Positions 1,478 to 10,428 of a DNA stretch of 10,428 bases are shown piece after piece. Source of the DNA: a virus; the UHGV virus genome UHGV-0062899. The stretch is one strand, 5' to 3'. The stretch's first letter is position 1. Each line of letters opens with the position of its first letter. The notes below the pieces were generated by a model. It searched no databases, was not told the origin of the DNA, and worked only from the letters and a program-made list of their open reading frames with translations. Position numbers and translations under genes: made by a program.

Positions 1478-1711
1478 TTACAGCGTTTTTTCCTGGTGGC
1501 TGATCGGGAACTTGTCCGGTGGAAGGGCTTCAAGGGTATGTGATGGCAAATCGGGACGGTTAAGCGTGCAGTAAATCTCTGTCATAGAGATAAACGTCAG
1601 GCCACACTTAAGGTTCTGGCACTGATGATAGCTTTTTCTTACCAGGTCGCTGAGTTCAACGCTGGTTCTTGTCTTCGCCGTTGCATGGCATTGAGGGCAA
1701 CGCATAGCCAT
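1478..1711 (-). CDS. Ogr/Delta-family zinc-finger late transcription activator (77 aa)
   Basis: MAMRCPQCHATAKTRTSVELSDLVRKSYHQCQNLKCGLTF has the C-x2-C-x22-C-x4-C spacing and the RTS / YHQCQN motifs of P2 Ogr and P4 Delta. GAGGAG Shine-Dalgarno sits 8 nt upstream of the ATG. Confidence 0.85.
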   Translation of the reverse strand: MAMRCPQCHATAKTRTSVELSDLVRKSYHQCQNLKCGLTFISMTEIYCTLNRPDLPSHTLEALPPDKFPISHQEKTL

Positions 1712-1779: not shown

Positions 1780-2817
1780 TTAACGCTGATCGTTACCCCA
1801 GATAATCCCTTCAATCAGGCATCCCTTGCCGTAGTCTTCGACCACATAGGCGTTATTCCACGAATCATAGGTTGAGACGCGGTTAAATTCCGGTTCTTCC
1901 GAGATTTTGCGGCGGTGTGTTCCTGTTTGCCAGTACAAAGACAGATTATCAAGCGAAGTAACCAGCATCGCATTTTGAGGAAAGAACGGAATTGGGCAAA
2001 CGGGAAGCCCTCCGATCTGACGGTTCTCATTTTGTAATGCTAAAGCGAGCAACTCTTTATTTGGTGTCACTCCAAGATTATTAACAAAGGGATAATACTT
2101 TCCTGTAATCAATGAGAGATTACAAATAACAACAAGATCTGAATCCCCGGTGTGCCACGGATCTAATAATTCCTGATATGCCTCCATCGTCAGAGAGTCA
2201 ATAGTACCGTAATCCCCGCTGGACTCGATAATATTGGCGTTATTGCGGCGACTGACCGATACACCATTAACCACGCGGGCTGAGGCATTTCGCCGCCACT
2301 TTTCTAACCAGCCGGTATTAACATCCTGAAGCAACGGGTTAGCAGTAATATCTGATTTAGCCGCATGGTGAGTGCCATAAATGCCAGTCAGTATTACATC
2401 CAGTGCCTGACGGCGATAAATCTGGCTCTCCATATGCCCGAAGAAATTATCAAGGCCCGCCCACTGATCCAGTTTCTCATAAGAAACATAGGTATCAGTA
2501 TTCACCTGCTCACAACGGTATCGGTCAGTCTCTGCTGTACAACCTTGTACGGGCTGGCGTGCCTCTGTCGTTGAGTTGTTCGTACTGGACAGCGGTACAG
2601 ATGTAAGCCCGATCGACTCTTCTTCCTGCTCGTCCACTTCCAGAATATTTATCTGTTTAAGTAAATCTGCGCTTTCCTGCATCTTATCAACAATAGTTTG
2701 CGATGCAGATGGTGTAAGTGAAAAGGAAATCCCATCCAGCTTTGAACTGTTCAGCTTATTTTGTGATGCCTGCAATAAGCACCATGCATCATATTTTTCT
2801 CTGGTGCTGTTTTTCAT
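1780..2817 (-). CDS. P2 gpN-family major capsid protein homolog (345 aa)
   Basis: Conserved blocks match my recollection of P2 gpN along the whole length: MQESADLLKQINI, RQP, RYRCEQVNTDTY, NPLLQDVNTGWLEKWR, SGDYGTIDSLTMEA, DPWHTGDSDLVVI, GKYYPFVNN, LDNLSLYW, THRRKISEEPEFNRV, YVVEDYGKGCLIE. Length is close to gpN (about 357 aa). GGAG lies ~10 nt upstream of the ATG. Confidence 0.75.
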   Translation of the reverse strand: MKNSTREKYDAWCLLQASQNKLNSSKLDGISFSLTPSASQTIVDKMQESADLLKQINILEVDEQEEESIGLTSVPLSSTNNSTTEARQPVQGCTAETDRYRCEQVNTDTYVSYEKLDQWAGLDNFFGHMESQIYRRQALDVILTGIYGTHHAAKSDITANPLLQDVNTGWLEKWRRNASARVVNGVSVSRRNNANIIESSGDYGTIDSLTMEAYQELLDPWHTGDSDLVVICNLSLITGKYYPFVNNLGVTPNKELLALALQNENRQIGGLPVCPIPFFPQNAMLVTSLDNLSLYWQTGTHRRKISEEPEFNRVSTYDSWNNAYVVEDYGKGCLIEGIIWGNDQR

Positions 2818-2854: not shown

Positions 2855-3592
2855 CTATTTTCTGAATGGCTCAATCCCCGCCGCCAGTCTCTTCTTATAA
2901 TCCATATCAGAGCGTGCTTTAGATTCCTGAATTGGCGAAGGACTGTTATTTAACGCATGGTTAATACTGCCAGACAATGCACCGGGGAAAAATGCCAGTA
3001 CAGGATCGCTGAAAAGACTACTGTCAGCATCACTCAATAATTCACGTACAACCGTTCTGGAGTCAACGCGAAGTAACTTCATAAATTCATCTGATAATAT
3101 TCTTTCTGCATCACTGGTGTTTAATCCTGCCAGAGAATAAAGCCCAATGACGACAGACAATCGCTCACCAACCAGCGCTCTGAGGTCGTCTTTAAGAGAC
3201 TGGAGAAAAGAATCCGCAATCACTGACGAAAGTTTAAAATAAGCCTCTTTCGTCTGGCGTGCCTGGCTTGCGGTTTGAATCCGTAGATCAAGCACCGTCA
3301 GGCTCTGGGATTCAATCAACTCCTGGATTTTTTGAAGCTTTACCATCACCTGCGCTGCGGACAGTGCCGCACCATCTGTTTCCGCACTTTCAACGCCTCC
3401 GTTCCTGAGCAACGCAAGCCCCCAGTCACCGGCACTATGGCCCGCGTTTGACTCCACTTCTATTTTTCGCTTTGTCTCGCTCAGGTTGGCAAGCACCTTC
3501 TCTTCGTCTGAAAGAGACTTATAGGCACGGTCAAATAGCTCTTTCTGCTGCTGGTAACTCACGAGTAATGCCTGCATGTTGTTTTGTGTCAT
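2855..3592 (-). CDS. Alpha-helical protein, possibly a Sid-like external scaffold / capsid size-determination protein (245 aa)
   Basis: Real-looking ORF forming an operon with the two genes downstream. It is rich in L/A/E/Q/S helical segments. Its size (245 aa vs 244 for P4 Sid) and position upstream of an Ogr/Delta-like gene fit Sid, and a segment SAGDWGLALLRNGGVES loosely matches what I recall of Sid. Functional call is tentative. Confidence 0.45.
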   Translation of the reverse strand: MTQNNMQALLVSYQQQKELFDRAYKSLSDEEKVLANLSETKRKIEVESNAGHSAGDWGLALLRNGGVESAETDGAALSAAQVMVKLQKIQELIESQSLTVLDLRIQTASQARQTKEAYFKLSSVIADSFLQSLKDDLRALVGERLSVVIGLYSLAGLNTSDAERILSDEFMKLLRVDSRTVVRELLSDADSSLFSDPVLAFFPGALSGSINHALNNSPSPIQESKARSDMDYKKRLAAGIEPFRK

Positions 3593-3747
3593 CGTCCTGC
3601 ACCTTGTGATTATTGCGATGGGAAAATGATTGCAGGAAAAATAAATCCAGTCGCACCGTTAAGGTTGTCAGGGGTGTACTACACCTATAAGCATCATTCG
3701 TCCCGGACGGTTTGCGCAGATAATGCAGACAGGCCAAAGGAGGAACT

Positions 3748-3957
3748 ATGCCCACATTACCCAGAAATAACAGGTCGGTGCTGAAATCACTGAGGATCCC
3801 CAATGAACTGGATCAGTACATAGTGGCGATGAGCAAGCGAAGTGGTGCGAGCTATTGTCGTTGCCTGATCGAACTGGCCGGTGCGGGTCTGCTGGCTAAA
3901 GGGATCGGGCGAATAGCCGTTCCTGAGATCGATTCCTGCCGGAAACATCGAATATAA
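3748..3957 (+). CDS. Small ribbon-helix-helix-like DNA-binding protein (69 aa), candidate regulator
   Basis: AAGGAGG Shine-Dalgarno 4-5 nt upstream of the ATG. KSLRIPNELDQYIVAMSKRSGASYCRCLIELA fits the beta-strand/helix/helix pattern of Arc/MetJ/CopG-type proteins. It is the only plus-strand gene and is divergent from the morphogenesis operon. A GATAAT -10-like hexamer lies at 3719-3724. Confidence 0.55.
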   Translation: MPTLPRNNRSVLKSLRIPNELDQYIVAMSKRSGASYCRCLIELAGAGLLAKGIGRIAVPEIDSCRKHRI

Positions 3958-4126
3958 CCCCGCCCAGCCCGTACGAGCGGGTGTATTACACATCCAGCCG
4001 CATACGCTCATATGGTACAGATCTGCCCTTGAATCCTTCACGATCTAGCCTGATGGGTGCCGTTCCCTTCAAAAAAATTGATGCATTAACACAAAAAGAT
4101 GTGATCAACTACCAGATGCAATATAA

Positions 4127-4160
4127 GCCTCTCAGAGCCACGCTGAGAGGTGTTTTCATT
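4127..4160 (+). terminator. Rho-independent terminator (plus strand)
   Basis: GCCTCTCAG-AGCCACG-CTGAGAGGT: a 9-bp stem with terminal G-U and 7-nt loop, followed by GTTTTCATT. It lies 170 bp downstream of the RHH-like gene. Confidence 0.5.
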
Positions 4161-4253
4161 ATCCACCTTCCTGCATTACCCATCTATAAAACGCATCACA
4201 TCAAGCCGGAGAATAATCAGGATATGCCATCCTGTCTCACCTCTCAGCGCGCG

Positions 4254-4281
4254 CTTGTTCCCCCGCCTCGCCCGCACGCAG
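4254..4281 (-). other. cos-like site (P2/P4/186-type cohesive-end sequence)
   Basis: Minus strand reads GGCGAGGCGGGGGAACAAGCGCGCGCTGAGAGG. The first 12 nt equal the start of the P2/P4 19-nt cohesive end as I recall it (GGCGAGGCGGGGAAAGCAC), and a CGCGCTGA block follows as I recall for P4. A chance 12-mer match in this window is improbable. Confidence 0.5.
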
Positions 4282-4589
4282 AAAGCCCGCTTTTTTGTGC
4301 AAATGTGCAGTCCGGCCAAAGCCGTGCCCCGTCTGGGCTGGAGTGGCAAAAGTACCATCAAAAAAATTGTGCATTAGCGTGCAAATTTGTGCGGTGATTT
4401 TGCAGCGATCATTTTCACCTTAAAAAGAGCCAAACTCCGGCTGCGCCCGGGCCAGTTATGCACGCTGTTTTCGTGTTGCACAATGTTGATTTATTGCCCT
4501 CGGTGCACGCTGATTTGAAAGTGAAGTGTGAAAAAAGGGTTAACAGAAAAAGAGCTGTTTTACTGAAAAACTGAGGGGAGGTACGGAAG

Positions 4590-4860
4590 TCGGTTACAAC
4601 GGTTACGGGGGTGAAATAATATGCTTAACTCAATGATTTATATTAATTAAATTTGTAACCTTTGTGAGGTTACAAAAGGTTCCATTAAAGTTACACCCAA
4701 TAAAATCAATCAGTTAAATATCTAAGTTGTAACTTTAGATAAGGTTACAGAGTAACCCGATCGTAACCCGGTTGTAACTTTTCCAAGTTGGTGAAAATTA
4801 CATATAAATCAATATAATATATTTATATCTTTACTTTGTAACTTTTGTAACCCGTTTCCG
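4590..4860. repeat. Iteron array (about 12 copies of GGTTACAA/TTGTAACC, both orientations) around an AT-rich core; putative replication origin or integrase arm sites
   Basis: Copies at 4592-4599, 4601-4607, 4653-4660, 4668-4675, 4689-4696, 4736-4743, 4743-4750, 4751-4758, 4761-4768, 4772-4779, 4836-4843 and 4846-4854. An AT-rich stretch at 4795-4835 lies among them. The array is non-coding and sits just downstream of the int2/primase operon. Confidence 0.6.
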
Positions 4861-5127
4861 ATCCCCCCCCTCAAATTCTGGAAAATCTGCTTTTTTTTAA
4901 AAAAGGCTTCTTTTCTGTTAAATGTTTTGTCATTTCGCCAAATGTCCGGCAATGGCTCCACTCCGGCAAACACTGCCACTTACGGCAGTGCTGGCCATAC
5001 ATCGAGTACAGTCATTTTTAACCGTGCTGCAGAACGGTCAGAAACGACGGTGATCCGGGCGATGAGGGCGTAATGCAGAACAGCTAAAAACGAAGGGAAT
5101 ATATCTACGCTACGAGGGAAAGGGGTA

Positions 5128-5147
5128 AACCGGCCCGTCAGCCGGTC
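5128..5147 (-). terminator. Possible terminator hairpin directly after the P2-type integrase stop
   Basis: Minus-strand RNA has a GC-rich stem ACCGGC/GCCGGU with a 5-6 nt loop, followed by UUUACCCCUUUCCC. The stem is short. Confidence 0.35.
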
Positions 5148-5149
5148 AT

Positions 5150-6130
5150 TCAGAGGCTGATTCCGCCAGAAAGGGGATTGAGTGAAACGGCGTGTTGCAG
5201 ATAGTCAGGCGCAACATGCGCATAAACCATCGTCTGCTGGATACTGGCGTGACCAAGAATTTGTTGTAAGGCGATAATATTGCCCCCGTTCATCATGAAC
5301 CAGCTTGCAAACGTATGGCGAAGCACATGCGTAGCCTGCCCGCGCGGCAGGTCCGGCTTAACCTCCCTAAGCCGCCCGCAAAAGGCTTCATAGTCAACGC
5401 TGAACAGCGGCCCGCAATCGCGGGTTTTGATCTCTTTTTCCAGTTCATCCGATATTGGGATCGTGCGCCTCTTCCCGTTTTTGGTTTTAAGAAAAGTTAC
5501 GCGTCCGTGGTTAATCTGCTCTCCCCGCAGTGTGCTGCCTTCTCCCCAGCGTGCGCCGGTGCTGAGGCACAAAAGAGCAACACGGCGATCGTCACCTGTA
5601 AGGGTATTCAATAATCGACTGATTTCCGATTTAGTAAGGTAGGTCATTGCTGCTGGTTTCTCCCTCAATGGCTCCAGCCCTTTACAGGGGTTATCAGCCT
5701 TGAATTCATCCAGTTTTATCAGGGCGCTGAACATACCCGAAAGGCGATATATATCACGGTTGACGGTGGCCGTGCTGATCCCTGAATCCAGCCGCTCGCT
5801 GCGATGCTGCGCGATGATTCGTTTAGTCAGCCGGTTAACTGCCGGGTTGCCCAGGGCTCTGATCGTTTTATCTAGGTGTCGTTTTTCGGCGTTTCCGTTC
5901 TCCAGCGTCCGGCCATACAGCAGCCACCAGATGTTTAGCAGCTCGCTGAGAGTACGCCGATCGGTGCTGGCGCCCAACCACTCTTTTTTATCGGCATTCG
6001 CCATAACATACCGTTCAAAGAGCGCTGCCTCCTGCTTTCTGTCAAAAATCCTGCGAAAGCGCTTACCGCTGCGCCCTCTGGCATAAATATCGACTTCATA
6101 ACGCCCGTCAGCCCGTTTTTTAATGGTCAT
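5150..6130 (-). CDS. int: P2-Int-like tyrosine recombinase, complete (326 aa)
   Basis: N-terminus MTIKKRADGRYEVDIYARGRSGKRFRRIFDRKQEA matches my recollection of P2/186-type integrases. Catalytic set is complete: LSTGARWGE (Arg I), KTKNGKRRTIPIS (Lys), HVLRHTFAS (His/Arg II), LGHASIQQT (His III), MVYAHV (Tyr). GAGGAA Shine-Dalgarno 8 nt upstream; start is 16 nt after the primase stop. Confidence 0.85.
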   Translation of the reverse strand: MTIKKRADGRYEVDIYARGRSGKRFRRIFDRKQEAALFERYVMANADKKEWLGASTDRRTLSELLNIWWLLYGRTLENGNAEKRHLDKTIRALGNPAVNRLTKRIIAQHRSERLDSGISTATVNRDIYRLSGMFSALIKLDEFKADNPCKGLEPLREKPAAMTYLTKSEISRLLNTLTGDDRRVALLCLSTGARWGEGSTLRGEQINHGRVTFLKTKNGKRRTIPISDELEKEIKTRDCGPLFSVDYEAFCGRLREVKPDLPRGQATHVLRHTFASWFMMNGGNIIALQQILGHASIQQTMVYAHVAPDYLQHAVSLNPLSGGISL

Positions 6131-6145
6131 ACTATTGTTCCTCTG

Positions 6146-8815
6146 CTACTGAGCGGCCGGCACTTTAAAAATCCAGCATTTCACCTGCTCAGGCTCTTTC
6201 GGGCCAGCCTCTCCACGCCCCTGATTTGCCAGTCTGGAAACCTCACTTCTTACCGTCTTCTGGCCCGTACACGGCCGCATACGCCCGTTTTTCAGGTAAT
6301 CCTGAATTTCTTTCGCCGGGGGAATATTTACACGCTGCATAGCAGCTATACGCATCAGGTGAGGGAAGTTAATGGCGATCTCGTCGCGATTCTCTTTCCC
6401 AAAATGGTTGACGCCGAAACGCTCCAGGCTATTCAGATAATCAAAGGCATCCCAGAACTCACGAACCACAGGGATATCCGCTTCCAGCGATTTAACCCGC
6501 TCCACCGCCATCACAGTAAGCTGTTCACAGGTGCGATCGAGGCGTTCTGCGGGAATATCCAGAACACAGGTCAGCGCCCTTACACATGCAATCATCTGGG
6601 CATGATTTTTGGCAATTCGGATATGACGAATTTCAGAGTGTTGTTCCAGCCTGATTTTTTCGGCCTCATACACCTCCTGAATAATCGACAATACTGCGCT
6701 TTCCCTGCATACCGCCCGGATCATAAAACCAGATACCTGATCGACCGGCAGACGCTCAAGGCGTTCAGCCGCCGCCCTGGTCAGCGATGACTGACGGCGT
6801 TTATCCGTAAACACATGGATAATACGTTCCAGTATCGCAGGTGAGGCGTTAACGGTGGCATTCTGCGCGATGACAATGCTGCCCCTGAATGGCGGCTCTC
6901 TGGTTTCATTGTTGTTGGTCTTAACACCAATCGCCCGTAATCCGCGCCCGTTGTAGAGCGGTTTTAGCTCATCGAAGTCAAAGCCGCGCAGCTTCTTCGT
7001 GTCTTGGGCGCGATCGCCTTCAAGCAGCACGACGGGAAGGTTTGAGACCTGGGCGAAGTTACGATAAATGCCCGCAACAGAACCCTTTGAAGGGTCAATT
7101 CCCTCATAGCTGTCCCTGCCACAGAGCCGCCAGAGAAAATCAATCAGCGTGGATTTACCTGTTCCCGGTTCACCGATAATCTCCAGAAAGGGAAAGCTGG
7201 CCTGCTGTTCGCGTATCTGTTCAACGAAGAATGTTCCCAGCCAGAATGCCAGCGCGACATAGCCATTTTCACCAAAAGCCGTCCAGATATCATCGGCCCA
7301 GCCTGACGAAAGCGAATTATCATCAGAATTGATATTGATTAACGGGGATCGGCTCAGTGTCTTGATATTCATCCCACCAATCTCAAAGTAATCTTCGCTG
7401 TTCAAGGAGTAGACCTTCCCGTTATGTATCGCCAGCTTATTGAATACCCATGCCCGCCAGTCCCTGTTATACCCAATAAAGTCCTGCGTCCTGACCTCTT
7501 TGATCCGGGGCAGATCCTTTTTAATCAGACCATCGAGCTGCTGGCTGGTTCCGGTATAGAGCGCACCTTTTGCCACATGGAGGAGACGCTTTTTAAACTC
7601 AGACGCAGAAGAGATCTGCCCCGCGGTAAAGGAGTCTTTCACTGCGGGTGTATTGCCTGGAAAGGCGATGCGAAAATAATACCAGGACTCGTCTGTAACT
7701 TCTGAACGCATAAAATACAGCGGTGCGGGGTGACAATTGGCTATTTCCTTAATTGCTCCAGACTCTTTCAATGCAATACTTCTGGCTTCACGTTCATCAT
7801 TAACTTTTTTATCGTTAAGGATACGCTCAACGGCCTTCATATGGCGCTCAATGTCCAGCTTAAACCAGTACACGCAGTTCCCGTATTCGAAGTGAAACTC
7901 AGGGCGTTCATTATGTTCAAACATCCGAAGCGCCTTATCTCGGGCGCTTTCCGCCAGCAACAGATCGCCGTAATAGCGGTACTCTTTCTGGTGTCGTCTG
8001 GTCAGCTTTCCGGTAAGGTGGAGATCGTTCCAGTCAGCTTTATTGCTCCCCTGTGAAGGAAGTGCGGCAACGGCTTTCCAGCCTTGTTCACGGCTCCGCG
8101 CCACATGGCGACGTATGGCTGTTTCCCCTGCTTTCCCATTGTCCAGCGCCCAGACAAGAAACGGCTTTTCTTTGCCCTGGAATTGTTCAGCAAGCGCTTT
8201 AAGCGCGGCTTCCGGGTAGTTTCCGGCAGTCATAATGGAAACGGCAGGGGTGCCGTTCTGATAAAGGCTAATGGCGTCAAAAATCCCCTCAGTTAGCCAG
8301 ATACAACTGACTTTAGCCAGATCCAGCGCTGGCGGAACCCACCAGTGACCGGCGTACTTACCGTGGAAGTTAGCCTTTCGATCAAAGCGTTCTGGCTTGT
8401 CGATAATCCGCTCCCACCAGATACCATCAGACAGGGCAAAGCGAACCGTTGCGCTTCCCATGCCGCCCTTATGGTAGCTTTCCTGCGTATAGCAGCCCTT
8501 TAAGCAGGTAGTATCCAGCCCTCTGGCTTCTCTCAGATAGGCTTCCGCAGCGGCAAAAGGCTGCTCAGGCGTGCTCTCATAGCGATCTGACCATGAGTTA
8601 AATAATTCAGGATAGAGCGATTTTACCGACAGATCAGCGCCGCAATTATTTTCCCGGCCACAGCGCAGCACCCAAGGATTTTCCATGCTGGTAAAGAGTT
8701 CTTTCTTGTTACATTCAGGGCAAATACCTGAGCGCAGATAGCCGTTCTGCTCTTTAAACTGGTAATCATGCACCAGTCGTTTTATGATTTCGGGGCGTAG
8801 ATCTTTTCTGTTCAT
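6146..8815 (-). CDS. Bifunctional primase / P-loop NTPase replication protein (zinc-ribbon + Toprim + Walker A/B), P4 alpha-like (889 aa)
   Basis: N-terminal C-x2-C-x16-C-x5-C zinc ribbon (CPECNKK...RCGRENNC); Toprim-like motifs IWLTEGIFDAISLY and LVWALDNGKAG; Walker A GEPGTGKST with downstream VVLLEGD (Walker B-like). AAGGA Shine-Dalgarno 7 nt upstream of the ATG. Confidence 0.85.
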   Translation of the reverse strand: MNRKDLRPEIIKRLVHDYQFKEQNGYLRSGICPECNKKELFTSMENPWVLRCGRENNCGADLSVKSLYPELFNSWSDRYESTPEQPFAAAEAYLREARGLDTTCLKGCYTQESYHKGGMGSATVRFALSDGIWWERIIDKPERFDRKANFHGKYAGHWWVPPALDLAKVSCIWLTEGIFDAISLYQNGTPAVSIMTAGNYPEAALKALAEQFQGKEKPFLVWALDNGKAGETAIRRHVARSREQGWKAVAALPSQGSNKADWNDLHLTGKLTRRHQKEYRYYGDLLLAESARDKALRMFEHNERPEFHFEYGNCVYWFKLDIERHMKAVERILNDKKVNDEREARSIALKESGAIKEIANCHPAPLYFMRSEVTDESWYYFRIAFPGNTPAVKDSFTAGQISSASEFKKRLLHVAKGALYTGTSQQLDGLIKKDLPRIKEVRTQDFIGYNRDWRAWVFNKLAIHNGKVYSLNSEDYFEIGGMNIKTLSRSPLININSDDNSLSSGWADDIWTAFGENGYVALAFWLGTFFVEQIREQQASFPFLEIIGEPGTGKSTLIDFLWRLCGRDSYEGIDPSKGSVAGIYRNFAQVSNLPVVLLEGDRAQDTKKLRGFDFDELKPLYNGRGLRAIGVKTNNNETREPPFRGSIVIAQNATVNASPAILERIIHVFTDKRRQSSLTRAAAERLERLPVDQVSGFMIRAVCRESAVLSIIQEVYEAEKIRLEQHSEIRHIRIAKNHAQMIACVRALTCVLDIPAERLDRTCEQLTVMAVERVKSLEADIPVVREFWDAFDYLNSLERFGVNHFGKENRDEIAINFPHLMRIAAMQRVNIPPAKEIQDYLKNGRMRPCTGQKTVRSEVSRLANQGRGEAGPKEPEQVKCWIFKVPAAQ

Positions 8816-8826
8816 ATAAAATCCTT

Positions 8827-8849
8827 AAGCGCCGCTCATCACGGCGCTT
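8827..8849. promoter_or_regulatory. Stem-loop abutting the primase ribosome-binding site
   Basis: AAGCGCCG-CTCATCA-CGGCGCTT, a perfect 8-bp stem, between the 87-aa ORF stop (8855) and the primase Shine-Dalgarno (8823-8827). On the plus strand a T-rich run follows (TTTTATTTCAC). On the sense minus strand it is followed by UUAAGGAUUUUAU. Confidence 0.35.
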
Positions 8850-8854
8850 TTATT

Positions 8855-9118
8855 TCACTCTTTGTCTTCTTGTACAGCATGTCCCAGATATTTGTCACAA
8901 ATCCCCAGGCGTTTAACTTCCTGTAGTACTGATGAAATATCTTCACTGATATAACTGAAAATATCCGGTATCCATAAGAGTGGCATCGCGTTAGCTTCAC
9001 ACTGGCGAATATGTAAATGCATCTGAAATGCGACATTCCTCGCGCGATTCAGTTTGTGATAATTCTCAATACTGAGGTGAGACGGATTAACACTCTGAAT
9101 ATGATTACTTGTTGTCAT
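8855..9118 (-). CDS. Hypothetical protein (87 aa)
   Basis: AGAGGA Shine-Dalgarno 5-6 nt upstream of the ATG; same strand as the replication operon; no family recognised. Confidence 0.5.
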   Translation of the reverse strand: MTTSNHIQSVNPSHLSIENYHKLNRARNVAFQMHLHIRQCEANAMPLLWIPDIFSYISEDISSVLQEVKRLGICDKYLGHAVQEDKE

Positions 9119-9195: not shown

Positions 9196-9429
9196 TTATC
9201 GGCTCTGATTAATAAATAATGGCGTGATTATTTCCAGCACCTTTAGCGCTTTAAAATGCGTTAATCCTTCCCAACGTAGCTGGGCCGTAGCCCGGATTAT
9301 TGCATCATCGCGATTAAGCGCCTCAACCGTCACCTGTGCACTGCGCGTATAACCTTTACGCGTCACCGCATAACCAGAAACCTGATAAGATTTATTCCTT
9401 GTTACTTTACCGCGAAAGATATTAGCCAT
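9196..9429 (-). CDS. Hypothetical small protein g5 (77 aa)
   Basis: Start ATGGCTAA overlaps the stop of the upstream gene by 8 nt (translational coupling). Basic protein; no family recognised. Confidence 0.55.
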   Translation of the reverse strand: MANIFRGKVTRNKSYQVSGYAVTRKGYTRSAQVTVEALNRDDAIIRATAQLRWEGLTHFKALKVLEIITPLFINQSR

Positions 9430-9616
9430 GTTTCACCTTCCCGACTGTTACGGTGTATTCATTATCATCGGCATATTTCCCGTTACAGGTAATAACATCG
9501 GCCATTTTACAGGCTGCTTTCACCGCCTTAACGGATGATTTATATTCCTGCGTGCTTTGATAATTTTGTATTTCGCCAGTAATAACGTTACGGCAGGTAA
9601 TGAACAGTTTATACAT
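9422..9616 (-). CDS. Hypothetical small protein g4 (64 aa), paralog of g3
   Basis: Start taken at the internal ATG (MYKLFIT...) preceded by GGAGG and overlapping the g3 stop (ATGTATAA). N-terminus and length resemble g3. Confidence 0.55.
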   Translation of the reverse strand: MYKLFITCRNVITGEIQNYQSTQEYKSSVKAVKAACKMADVITCNGKYADDNEYTVTVGKVKHG

Positions 9617-9800
9617 TTCCGGCCTCCGCAATTTTCACAATACATTCATGCGTTACGGTGCCGATGGCATTCTTATGGATATACGCCATTTTCTGCGCGT
9701 CTTTCCATGCAGCTTCGCGGGTTTTATAGCGGCCAATGTGAACCAGTTCGCGCCGGTCGCCAGCTTCGTGATTAATCAGGGTGATAAGCAGTTTAAACAT
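9609..9800 (-). CDS. Hypothetical small protein g3 (63 aa), paralog of g4
   Basis: Start taken at ATG (MFKLLIT...) overlapping the g2 stop (ATGTTTAA), preceded by GAGGTGG. The track ORF is 4 codons longer at its 5-prime end. Confidence 0.55.
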   Translation of the reverse strand: MFKLLITLINHEAGDRRELVHIGRYKTREAAWKDAQKMAYIHKNAIGTVTHECIVKIAEAGNV

Positions 9801-10047
9801 GAGCCACCTCACGAGCTGTTATCCGATCTTTTAATTCAGCAATTAAGCGGTTCAGGACGTCCCGCCCTTTATCGTTCAAAGCGTCAAGGCCGTAATCGTA
9901 AGCGGCAAAAATGGCGATCTCCATTTCACGCGAATCTATTTCAACCGTTACTTTTGTACCTGGCTTGATGAAAGCTGGCGGCGCGTAGTGGTTATCATGG
10001 AACGGGTTAAGTGTTGCGGCTTTTTGGTTATCAAGGGGGTTAAACAT
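9793..10047 (-). CDS. Hypothetical small protein g2 (84 aa)
   Basis: Start taken at ATG (MFNPLDNQ...) overlapping the g1 stop (ATGTTTAA), preceded by GAGGTGG. C-terminus is REVAHV, the same as g1. Confidence 0.55.
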   Translation of the reverse strand: MFNPLDNQKAATLNPFHDNHYAPPAFIKPGTKVTVEIDSREMEIAIFAAYDYGLDALNDKGRDVLNRLIAELKDRITAREVAHV

Positions 10048-10237
10048 GGGCCACCTCGCGAACCGGCAGACGACCGGCAAAAGAGGCGATAAATTCACGC
10101 GCTATAACGCGGCGTGCGGCCTGATAGGTTGAGGCGGTGACTTCTTCACGGTGTGGACGTGCGGACACGTCAGAACGGCGCACAGCGAGAAAAAGCCAAA
10201 CAAATTGGGGATGCAATGGGGCAGGGGTTGTCATCAT
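10040..10237 (-). CDS. Hypothetical small protein g1 (65 aa); alternative longer start at 10417
   Basis: ATG-ATG pair with AAGGAG 9 nt upstream (MMTTPAPLHPQF...). The frame stays open upstream to 10417 (125-aa track ORF), but that extension has no ribosome-binding site and contains a dyad repeat. Confidence 0.45.
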   Translation of the reverse strand: MMTTPAPLHPQFVWLFLAVRRSDVSARPHREEVTASTYQAARRVIAREFIASFAGRLPVREVAHV

Positions 10238-10266
10238 AATGATGATCTCCTTGTACTTAATTAAGG

Positions 10267-10307
10267 AGTCACCACCGGAGTTTCCACGCTCATGATTGGT
10301 GGTGACA
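10267..10307. promoter_or_regulatory. Dyad symmetry element upstream of the small-ORF cassette; candidate operator
   Basis: AGTCACCACC (10267-10276) and GGTGGTGACT (10298-10307): perfect 10-bp inverted arms with a 21-bp spacer, ~30 bp upstream of the g1 start. A near-palindrome TCATCATAATGATGA (10231-10245) covers the start codon. Confidence 0.3.
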
Positions 10308-10428
10308 CTGACAGGGGTGGAAATACCGGCGTACAAGGAGACCGGCCAGCCCGAAAGCTGCCCTGCCAGAGCCACCATTGATACTGCGCGGATCTGCTCC
10401 GCTGAATATGGTGGCACTGATTTAACGA

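Follow-up and report, generated by a model that had tools for sequence, protein, structure and literature searches.

A variant P4-type left operon carrying a novel insert of small genes in a P4-like satellite element

What is encoded by a chain of five very small genes on the minus strand of the viral genome UHGV-0062899, between positions 10237 and 9196 of the 10,428-nucleotide stretch analyzed here (the window)? In a first-pass annotation the five open reading frames (ORFs), designated g1 to g5, had been described as an early cassette without recognizable families that might manipulate a helper phage, counter host defenses or act as a toxin-like system. The region is the promoter-proximal translated part of the P4-type "left" (early/replication) operon of a P4-like satellite, and it represents a variant of the known P4 left operon that carries a novel insert. 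The five genes are listed below with the length and isoelectric point (pI) of each product; g3, g4, and g5 are referred to together as the trio.

10040..10237, minus strand: g1 (kil/Icd-like), 65 amino acids, pI 11.5
9793..10047, minus strand: g2, 84 amino acids, pI 5.5; putative accessory cassette
9609..9800, minus strand: g3, 63 amino acids, pI 9.3; paralogue of g4
9422..9616, minus strand: g4, 64 amino acids, pI 8.8; the fastest-diverging member of the trio
9196..9429, minus strand: g5, 77 amino acids, pI 10.7; the most conserved member of the trio

The coordinates and the overlapping stop/start junctions given in the first-pass annotation are confirmed. Genes g1 to g5 are chained by four exact 8-nucleotide overlaps of the type ATGNNTAA, which read, in order from g1/g2 to g4/g5, ATGTTTAA, ATGTTTAA, ATGTATAA, and ATGGCTAA. 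Each start follows a Shine-Dalgarno-like motif that is located at the very end of the gene before it (AAGGAG, GAGGTGG, GAGGTGG, GGAGG, and GAAGGTG, respectively). Four junctions with an overlap of 8 nucleotides between ORFs of at least 55 amino acids were observed in this 1042-nucleotide region, as compared with none in 2000 dinucleotide-preserving shuffles. The overlaps are conserved in nine species-level relatives (L003–L011), even where g5 has a GTG start or a TGA stop. Against the same relatives, the ratio of nonsynonymous to synonymous substitution rates (dN/dS) is 0.13–0.22 for g1, 0.08 for g2, 0.06–0.34 for g4, and 0.09–0.22 for g5; for g3 it is 0.16–0.25 in L009 and L011, the two pairs divergent enough to judge. 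The five ORFs are real genes, a conclusion that for g2–g5 follows from the low dN/dS values and from the retention of the overlaps in relatives, and g2–g5 are under purifying selection. Conservation in related elements, on which the earlier proposal had been made to depend, is found for g2–g5. A scan of the minus strand from 9196 to 10237 gave no terminator-like site and a single promoter-like match, located inside g5 (9255-9227); promoter-like matches in the scanned region numbered 3 against a shuffle mean of 3.5, so there is no excess.

The description of the chain as lacking any recognizable family holds for g2–g5 but not for g1. The g1 product matches the full profile (1–48) of NCBIfam NF033153, "host cell division inhibitor Icd-like," with a score of 61.2 bits (cut-off 25; E 7e-17). 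In pairwise comparison it is 44% identical over 63 amino acids (E 6e-14) to the translation of P4 8177-8365, the syntenic kil region, which forms the 3' end of an ORF that GenBank labels "cI gene product," and its similarity to Icd of phage PY54 is also detectable (36% identity). We therefore assign g1 by homology as the counterpart of P4 Kil, a known cell-killing gene, and the killing activity is likewise assigned by homology. The P4 kil gene is said to be 65 codons long, and over-expressed Kil is reportedly toxic. One correction to the first-pass annotation is that g1 makes up the 3' portion, in frame, of a longer, Ash/eta-like ORF extending beyond the end of the window. The whole ORF, which corresponds to the RefSeq coding sequence at L001 13790-14389, has 199 codons, with a match to Pfam Phage_ASH (PF10554, 4e-28) at residues 50–146, a match to PHROG 6928 (2e-51), and the Icd-like region at residues 135–199. 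In P4, too, the eta ORF ends in kil and contains the CI immunity RNA (PMC10111431). The corresponding features of the window are as follows.

10040..10428, minus strand: 3' part of the Ash/eta-like ORF (199 amino acids in full), extending past the end of the window; its final 65 codons, in frame, are g1
10295..10382, minus strand: C4/CI-type immunity antisense RNA (homologue of P4 CI RNA), Rfam RF01695, 79 bits (gathering cut-off 45), full length 1–87
10246..10256, minus strand: seqC-like target GTACAAGGAGA, which contains the g1 Shine-Dalgarno motif AAGGAG

The C4/CI RNA is embedded in the eta-like ORF, 58 nucleotides upstream of the g1 ATG. A complementarity search showed that the loop of the CI hairpin, TCTCCTTGTAC, is perfectly complementary to the 11-nucleotide GTACAAGGAGA. 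A second, shorter loop-complementary copy that is seqA-like (8 nucleotides, GTACAAGG) lies within an Rfam match to isrK at L001 13960-13967, just outside the window. The C4 and isrK models detect relatives of CI and seqA (PMC10111431), and an isrK and C4 pair precedes kil in all four trio-bearing relatives scanned (L004, L009, L016, and L027). This anatomy is that of a P4/P1-type RNA immunity switch on the ribosome-binding site of g1. Immunity, one of the functions that had been sought within the cassette, is accounted for by the RNA at 10295-10382. The c4-icd-ant region of P1 and P7 shares with the window a C4-family RNA that precedes an Icd-family gene and can pair with the ribosome-binding site of that gene; the coupled downstream gene in P1 is the antirepressor ant, whereas in the window four small genes are followed by an epsilon-type derepressor. 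Translation of icd is reportedly needed for both transcription and translation of the overlapping downstream gene.

Just past window position 10428, L001 13919-13996 and 13883-13912 hold an isrK-family match with the seqA-like box and a terminator-like hairpin at its end, and a sigma-70-like promoter match is present directly upstream of this isrK/seqA-like leader. The stretch resembles the PLE/leader part of an immunity region that has been cut by the window edge. RefSeq annotates g1 solely within the 199-residue "Icd-like" ORF, a database practice that the present analysis corrects. A survey of P4-like elements (PMC8628076) used the Ash profile PF10554 as "epsilon," although this profile actually matches the eta/kil ORF; true epsilon homologues fall in PF25738, so that gene labels in Ash-based surveys may be shifted by one gene. 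Surveys that take the Ash profile as "epsilon" mislabel the kil/eta region.

The cassette is early and lies upstream of the primase, as had been described, but not directly so, because a gene of the epsilon family is located between g5 and the primase gene.

8855..9118, minus strand: epsilon-family helper-derepression gene, 87 amino acids; Pfam PF25738 (Derepression), 6e-20; 77 nucleotides downstream of g5
6146..8815, minus strand: primase/helicase alpha, 889 amino acids; Toprim_2 and Toprim_3 domains; distal gene of the operon

The 87-residue product is 45% identical to P4 epsilon (tblastn). Helper derepression, which had been placed within the cassette, is thus most probably the function of this gene (9118-8855), outside the five-gene chain. 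The primase, named toprim domain-containing protein in RefSeq, gave no match in the P4 genome by tblastn at E 1e-3; among trio-bearing relatives it is 57–92% identical where detected.

The architecture and mechanism of the P4 left operon are summarized in PMC10111431 (section 20); its order is PLE/PLL, seqA, cI RNA, seqC, kil/eta, epsilon, orf151, cnr, and alpha. P4 and the window element have in common a C4/CI RNA inside the Ash/eta ORF, seqA-like and seqC-like boxes, a kil gene formed by the last 65 codons of eta, a next gene that docks on kil with an 8-nucleotide overlap, and an epsilon-family derepressor and a primase downstream. In P4, epsilon overlaps kil/eta by 8 nucleotides (GTGCGTAA) and orf151 overlaps epsilon by 8 nucleotides; the ATGNNTAA junction is therefore in the style of the P4 left operon and no peculiarity of this element. 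The window element differs from P4 in having four extra genes, g2–g5, between kil and epsilon, a second tyrosine integrase gene after the primase gene, and a late region with a P2-family capsid gene; tblastn, BLASTP, and hhalign gave no homologue of orf151 or cnr (DUF5375) in the element, nor was psu found. Homology to P4 early proteins in the same order, which the first-pass annotation had considered for all five genes, is found only for g1.

The window is 100% identical to an element of ~11.7 kb that adjoins tRNA-Arg in Escherichia coli KCJ3K291 (NZ_CP054407). This element begins with genes for a P4-type integrase, an AlpA-like helix-turn-helix protein, and the 199-residue ORF annotated "Icd-like," continues with four hypothetical proteins (g2–g5), a fifth hypothetical protein, the toprim primase, and a second "phage integrase," and ends with a 245-residue ORF, a P2-family major capsid protein, and an Ogr/Delta zinc-finger protein. 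The gene order identifies the element as a P4-like satellite, and the AlpA-type gene and P4-type integrase upstream are further features that the full element shares with P4. A distant DNA search found g3–g5-like DNA in 1 of 5426 complete E. coli genomes.

Genes kil, g3, g4, and g5 are collinear in all nine genome loci. A distant lineage, represented by IMG/VR contigs of 8–27 kb, has eta together with counterparts of g3 (48–52% identical), g4 (33–37%), and g5 (40–44%), followed by a protein of ~100 amino acids, an 889-residue primase (58%), and a second integrase. The first hairpin of g5 carries GYAV...G.T and its last strand THF(K/R)ALKV, two sequence motifs that are invariant across both lineages. 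On these comparisons g3, g4, and g5 are a co-inherited trio whose order has been kept in two satellite lineages. The distribution of g2 is different: of the trio-bearing loci, only those of the window element and Scandinavium (L010) have it, and Klebsiella indica (L009) has an extra g3-like gene where g2 would be. The trio is missing from L033, which has a 65%-identical primase, and from the Salmonella elements L012–L015. In the latter, the interval from kil to epsilon contains a 140-residue protein, a g2 homologue, and a 159-residue protein; in L033, it contains the 140-residue protein and a 118-residue ORF. Because relatives carry differing genes in this interval, it is assigned as a variable slot, in which the trio appears to be a widespread co-inherited occupant and g2 a separate cassette.

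The junctions indicate where such exchanges may take place. The last codons of kil, which encode ...EV..V followed by the stop, thus comprise a Shine-Dalgarno motif, a start, and a stop on which the next gene docks. Nearly the same 20-mer, G[C/T]GAGGTGGC[C/T]CATGTTTAA, forms both the kil/g2 and the g2/g3 junction, and g1 and g2 consequently both end in REVAHV. Where g2 is absent, kil is joined to g3 by the same leader, and g2 homologues that precede other genes have different C termini. When the window element is compared with its relatives at the nucleotide level, identity jumps from ~76% in kil to ~97% in g3; with L006 and L007, a decrease to 80% in g4 is followed by a recovery to 90% in g5.

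Two further observations concern the slot and its border. In the E. coli ECONIH5 satellite (L036 7184-8249), a gene for a 291-residue tyrosine recombinase is docked on an Icd-like gene with the same 8-nucleotide overlap; therefore the docking site also takes large genes. Different genes docked on kil by such an overlap are found in other satellites as well. In several relatives, the position of epsilon is occupied by an unrelated protein of ~100 amino acids without a family in Pfam or PHROGs, located between g5 and the primase (L004 6315-6560, L009 6334-6561, L010 6316-6582, L016 4266-4565, and L027 5472-5777). It may be an alternative derepressor.

Searches with g2–g5, as single sequences or with 25 family members, gave no match at or near threshold in Pfam, NCBIfam, PHROGs, and PADLOC; for toxin, antitoxin, or defense families, nothing was found below E 0.03 in Pfam, NCBIfam, and PADLOC, and the family profiles had no significant match among PDB sequences. 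None of the P4 proteins compared (gop, beta, cII, cnr, orf151, eps, eta, vis, sid, delta, and psu) is similar to g2–g5 by tblastn, BLASTP, or hhalign, and the g3/g4, g5, and g2 alignments showed no similarity to T7 Gp2 when compared as profiles. RskA_N, CBM_4_9, CSD, and PDC-M58B were rejected as sub-threshold noise. The names DUF1508 (YegP) and DUF2188, which some g4 relatives have in UniRef, were not reproduced by any Pfam profile match, and a PDB profile match of g3/g4 to All3315 was too weak (E 0.31). Within the chain, g3 and g4 are paralogues, which align end to end and are 38% identical over 39 amino acids (BLASTP, E 1e-5); g5 was considered as a third, divergent paralogue, and hhalign found no similarity. 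The only lead for g2, a weak one, is a resemblance to SdhE/CptB-type proteins suggested by NCBIfam (E 0.03; 14 bits, cut-off 120) and by hhalign (probability 15.5%) over the same 31 residues; in our reading of the hhalign register with SdhE, the RGxxE motif is not conserved in g2. A ribbon-helix-helix assignment of g2 (Arc/CopG) was discarded at hhalign probabilities of 4% and 0.2%.

AlphaFold2 models of g4 and g5, with predicted local distance difference test scores of 87 and 81, are both strand-strand-helix-strand structures (beta-beta-alpha-beta), and the g5 model has basic, low-confidence termini that include a basic N-terminal tail. The g4 model matches topoisomerase domains, PurS, and ClpS as well as it matches AcrIC8, with sequence identities of 10–25%; the g5 model resembles many uncharacterized phage proteins of ~60 amino acids in BFVD. 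These matches are best attributed to a common small fold, and as model-based likenesses they assign no function. The genomic contexts of other beta-beta-alpha-beta proteins (ribosomal eL20/LX, T7 Gp2, and AcrIC8) are unrelated to that of g4 and g5. A Gp2-like identity of g5 was rejected on its opposite charge (pI 10.7 as compared with 4.6 for Gp2) and an hhalign probability of 0.4%, although the beta-beta-alpha-beta fold is shared. HEAT-repeat and alphaRep designs, which a PDB profile search returned for g5 (E 0.0016), are all-helical repeats and incompatible with the confident beta-beta-alpha-beta model.

Among 5.8 billion proteins, clustering at 90% identity gave 12 clusters for g4, 35 for g5, and 16 for g2, the members of the last being at least 62% identical. 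A full HMMER scan of 1.84 billion representatives with the joint g3 and g4 profile gave 18 clusters at 50% identity. By source names, the members come from Escherichia, Salmonella, Klebsiella, Enterobacter, Citrobacter, Kluyvera, Scandinavium, Izhakiella, Erwinia, Serratia, Edwardsiella, Symbiopectobacterium, and Apirhabdus. A tblastn search with g5 gave no match in 50,697 GenBank phage records or 72,556 PLSDB plasmids.

The account that we favor, with a probability of about 0.6, combines a P4-type early operon under an RNA immunity switch, a slot into which genes are swapped, and a trio of proteins that bind their targets early. By analogy with P4 and P1, the CI RNA would occlude the kil ribosome-binding site in the immune state; the untranslated transcript would then be terminated by Rho, as in P4, leaving g2–g5, epsilon, and alpha silent. 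When kil is translated, or full-length eta from an upstream promoter, ribosomes would be relayed from gene to gene through the overlaps. Such a relay would keep the RNA covered and yield early proteins in roughly stoichiometric amounts, with g2–g5 co-expressed with epsilon and alpha. The stretch between kil and epsilon would serve as the swap-in slot: each cassette would bring its own leader, consisting of a Shine-Dalgarno motif, an ATG, and the upstream stop, and recombination at the leaders would add, remove, or replace genes, g2 being one such add-on. The small basic trio proteins would bind a macromolecule of the host, helper, or satellite stoichiometrically in the early phase. That g3–g5 act as stoichiometric binders and not as catalysts is suggested, with low confidence, by their size, models, charge, and conservation, and their target would be one that occurs wherever this satellite backbone does; for all three, neither a catalytic domain nor a family could be recognized. 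The eL20-like fold, basic tail, and pI of 10.7 suggest that g5 may be a nucleic-acid binder.

A more specific form of the proposal, which we regard as tentative and think possible rather than probable, is that the trio is an undescribed, satellite-specific early effector set of three proteins, in which the invariant, basic g5 with its eL20-like fold would bind either nucleic acid or some conserved target in the host or helper, and the duplicated, faster-evolving g3/g4 pair would give specificity. If so, the trio could take over a process of the helper or host or counter defense, and, as no psu was found in the satellite, it could conceivably even act on the Rho/CI-RNA termination switch.

Other roles for these genes have to be weighed against the early-binder account. 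It is improbable that the trio belongs to the replication module as an accessory that, in functional analogy to P4 Cnr/orf151, regulates the primase or copy number or binds the origin. Its location in the operon of alpha, upstream of alpha, the company it keeps with this type of primase (57–92% identity) and with the second integrase, and the lack of P4 cnr and orf151 homologues in the window element would all fit such a role, as would a basic g5 whose eL20-like fold is compatible with nucleic-acid binding. However, no trio accompanies the 65%-identical primase of L033, the trio is not similar to Cnr or orf151 in profile comparison, and epsilon or the unrelated gene of ~100 amino acids is always placed between the trio and alpha. 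It is unlikely, and less probable than a replication role, that g3–g5, possibly together with g2, are anti-CRISPR-like proteins expressed on entry to protect the satellite and, incidentally, the helper. The likeness of g4 to AcrIC8, at 10–25% identity, is that of a generic fold that topoisomerase domains, PurS, and ClpS match equally, and the basic g3–g5 (pI 8.8–10.7) are unlike acidic DNA-mimic inhibitors such as Gp2. Anti-defense genes are usually patchy in distribution, whereas g5 is strongly conserved; it has no homologue in the 50,697 phage records, and all recovered trio loci share one satellite backbone instead of being spread across elements. For g2–g5, no evidence was found in support of the anti-defense or toxin-like roles initially suggested for the cassette.

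A toxin-like module of another kind would result if one or more of g2–g5 neutralized Kil or tuned its toxicity. Over-expressed Kil/Icd-like proteins are toxic (PMC10111431), and g2, with its faint SdhE/CptB-type resemblance, directly follows kil. Yet this match is far under threshold (14 bits as compared with 120) and, in our reading, shows no conservation of the RGxxE motif, most kil genes, that of P4 among them, have no such partner, g2 is missing from most trio-bearing elements that have the same kil, and no toxin-antitoxin or defense family was matched, so that an antidote function appears very unlikely. Least credible is the possibility, already disfavored, that the small ORFs are non-functional translated spacers that shield the RNA from Rho. 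The shortness of the ORFs and the lack of any family match are what it would predict, and coupling alone could keep the frames open. Against it stand the dN/dS values of 0.06–0.34, the g5 motifs that are invariant between lineages ~40% identical, the confident AlphaFold models of g4 and g5, and a gene order kept despite extensive sequence divergence.

The favored account, that of a switched early operon with a swap-in slot, implies that a P4-type immunity-controlled early operon has a built-in docking site, in which the Shine-Dalgarno motif, start, and stop lie in the last codons of kil. Satellites would plug differing small genes into this site, and any such gene would fall under the RNA immunity switch. 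The trio is singled out among these genes by being strongly conserved and satellite-restricted across at least 12 genera of Enterobacterales. It is relevant to the exploitation of host or helper by P4-like satellites that bring a capsid gene themselves and in which psu was not found.

The remaining features of the window lie downstream of the five-gene chain. A GC-rich hairpin at 8827-8849, between epsilon and the primase start, is intrinsic-terminator-like on the plus strand, where a T-run comes after it, whereas on the coding strand it is no more than a hairpin; it could end antisense transcripts or act as an attenuator ahead of alpha. The second integrase and the late genes are as follows.

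5150-6130, minus strand: second tyrosine integrase, 326 amino acids; Int_N PF24624 and PF00589; begins 15 nucleotides past the primase stop
2855-3592, minus strand: Sid-sized ORF, 245 amino acids, without a Pfam match
1780-2817, minus strand: P2-family major capsid gene, 345 amino acids; PF05125, 6e-99
1478-1711, minus strand: Ogr/Delta gene, 77 amino acids

The second integrase comes in addition to the P4-type integrase at tRNA-Arg, which is outside the window, and is kept in most of the related elements examined (45–87% identity). The capsid gene is flanked by the Sid-sized ORF and the Ogr/Delta gene; a helper-type capsid gene is unusual in a P4-like satellite. Between the second integrase and the Sid-like gene, an ORF-poor region of ~1.5 kb (3600-5150) with several short direct and inverted repeats is a candidate for the origin of replication, the cos site, or a late-promoter region. 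Within it, a plus-strand ORF of 69 amino acids (3748-3957) appears ribbon-helix-helix-like by eye.

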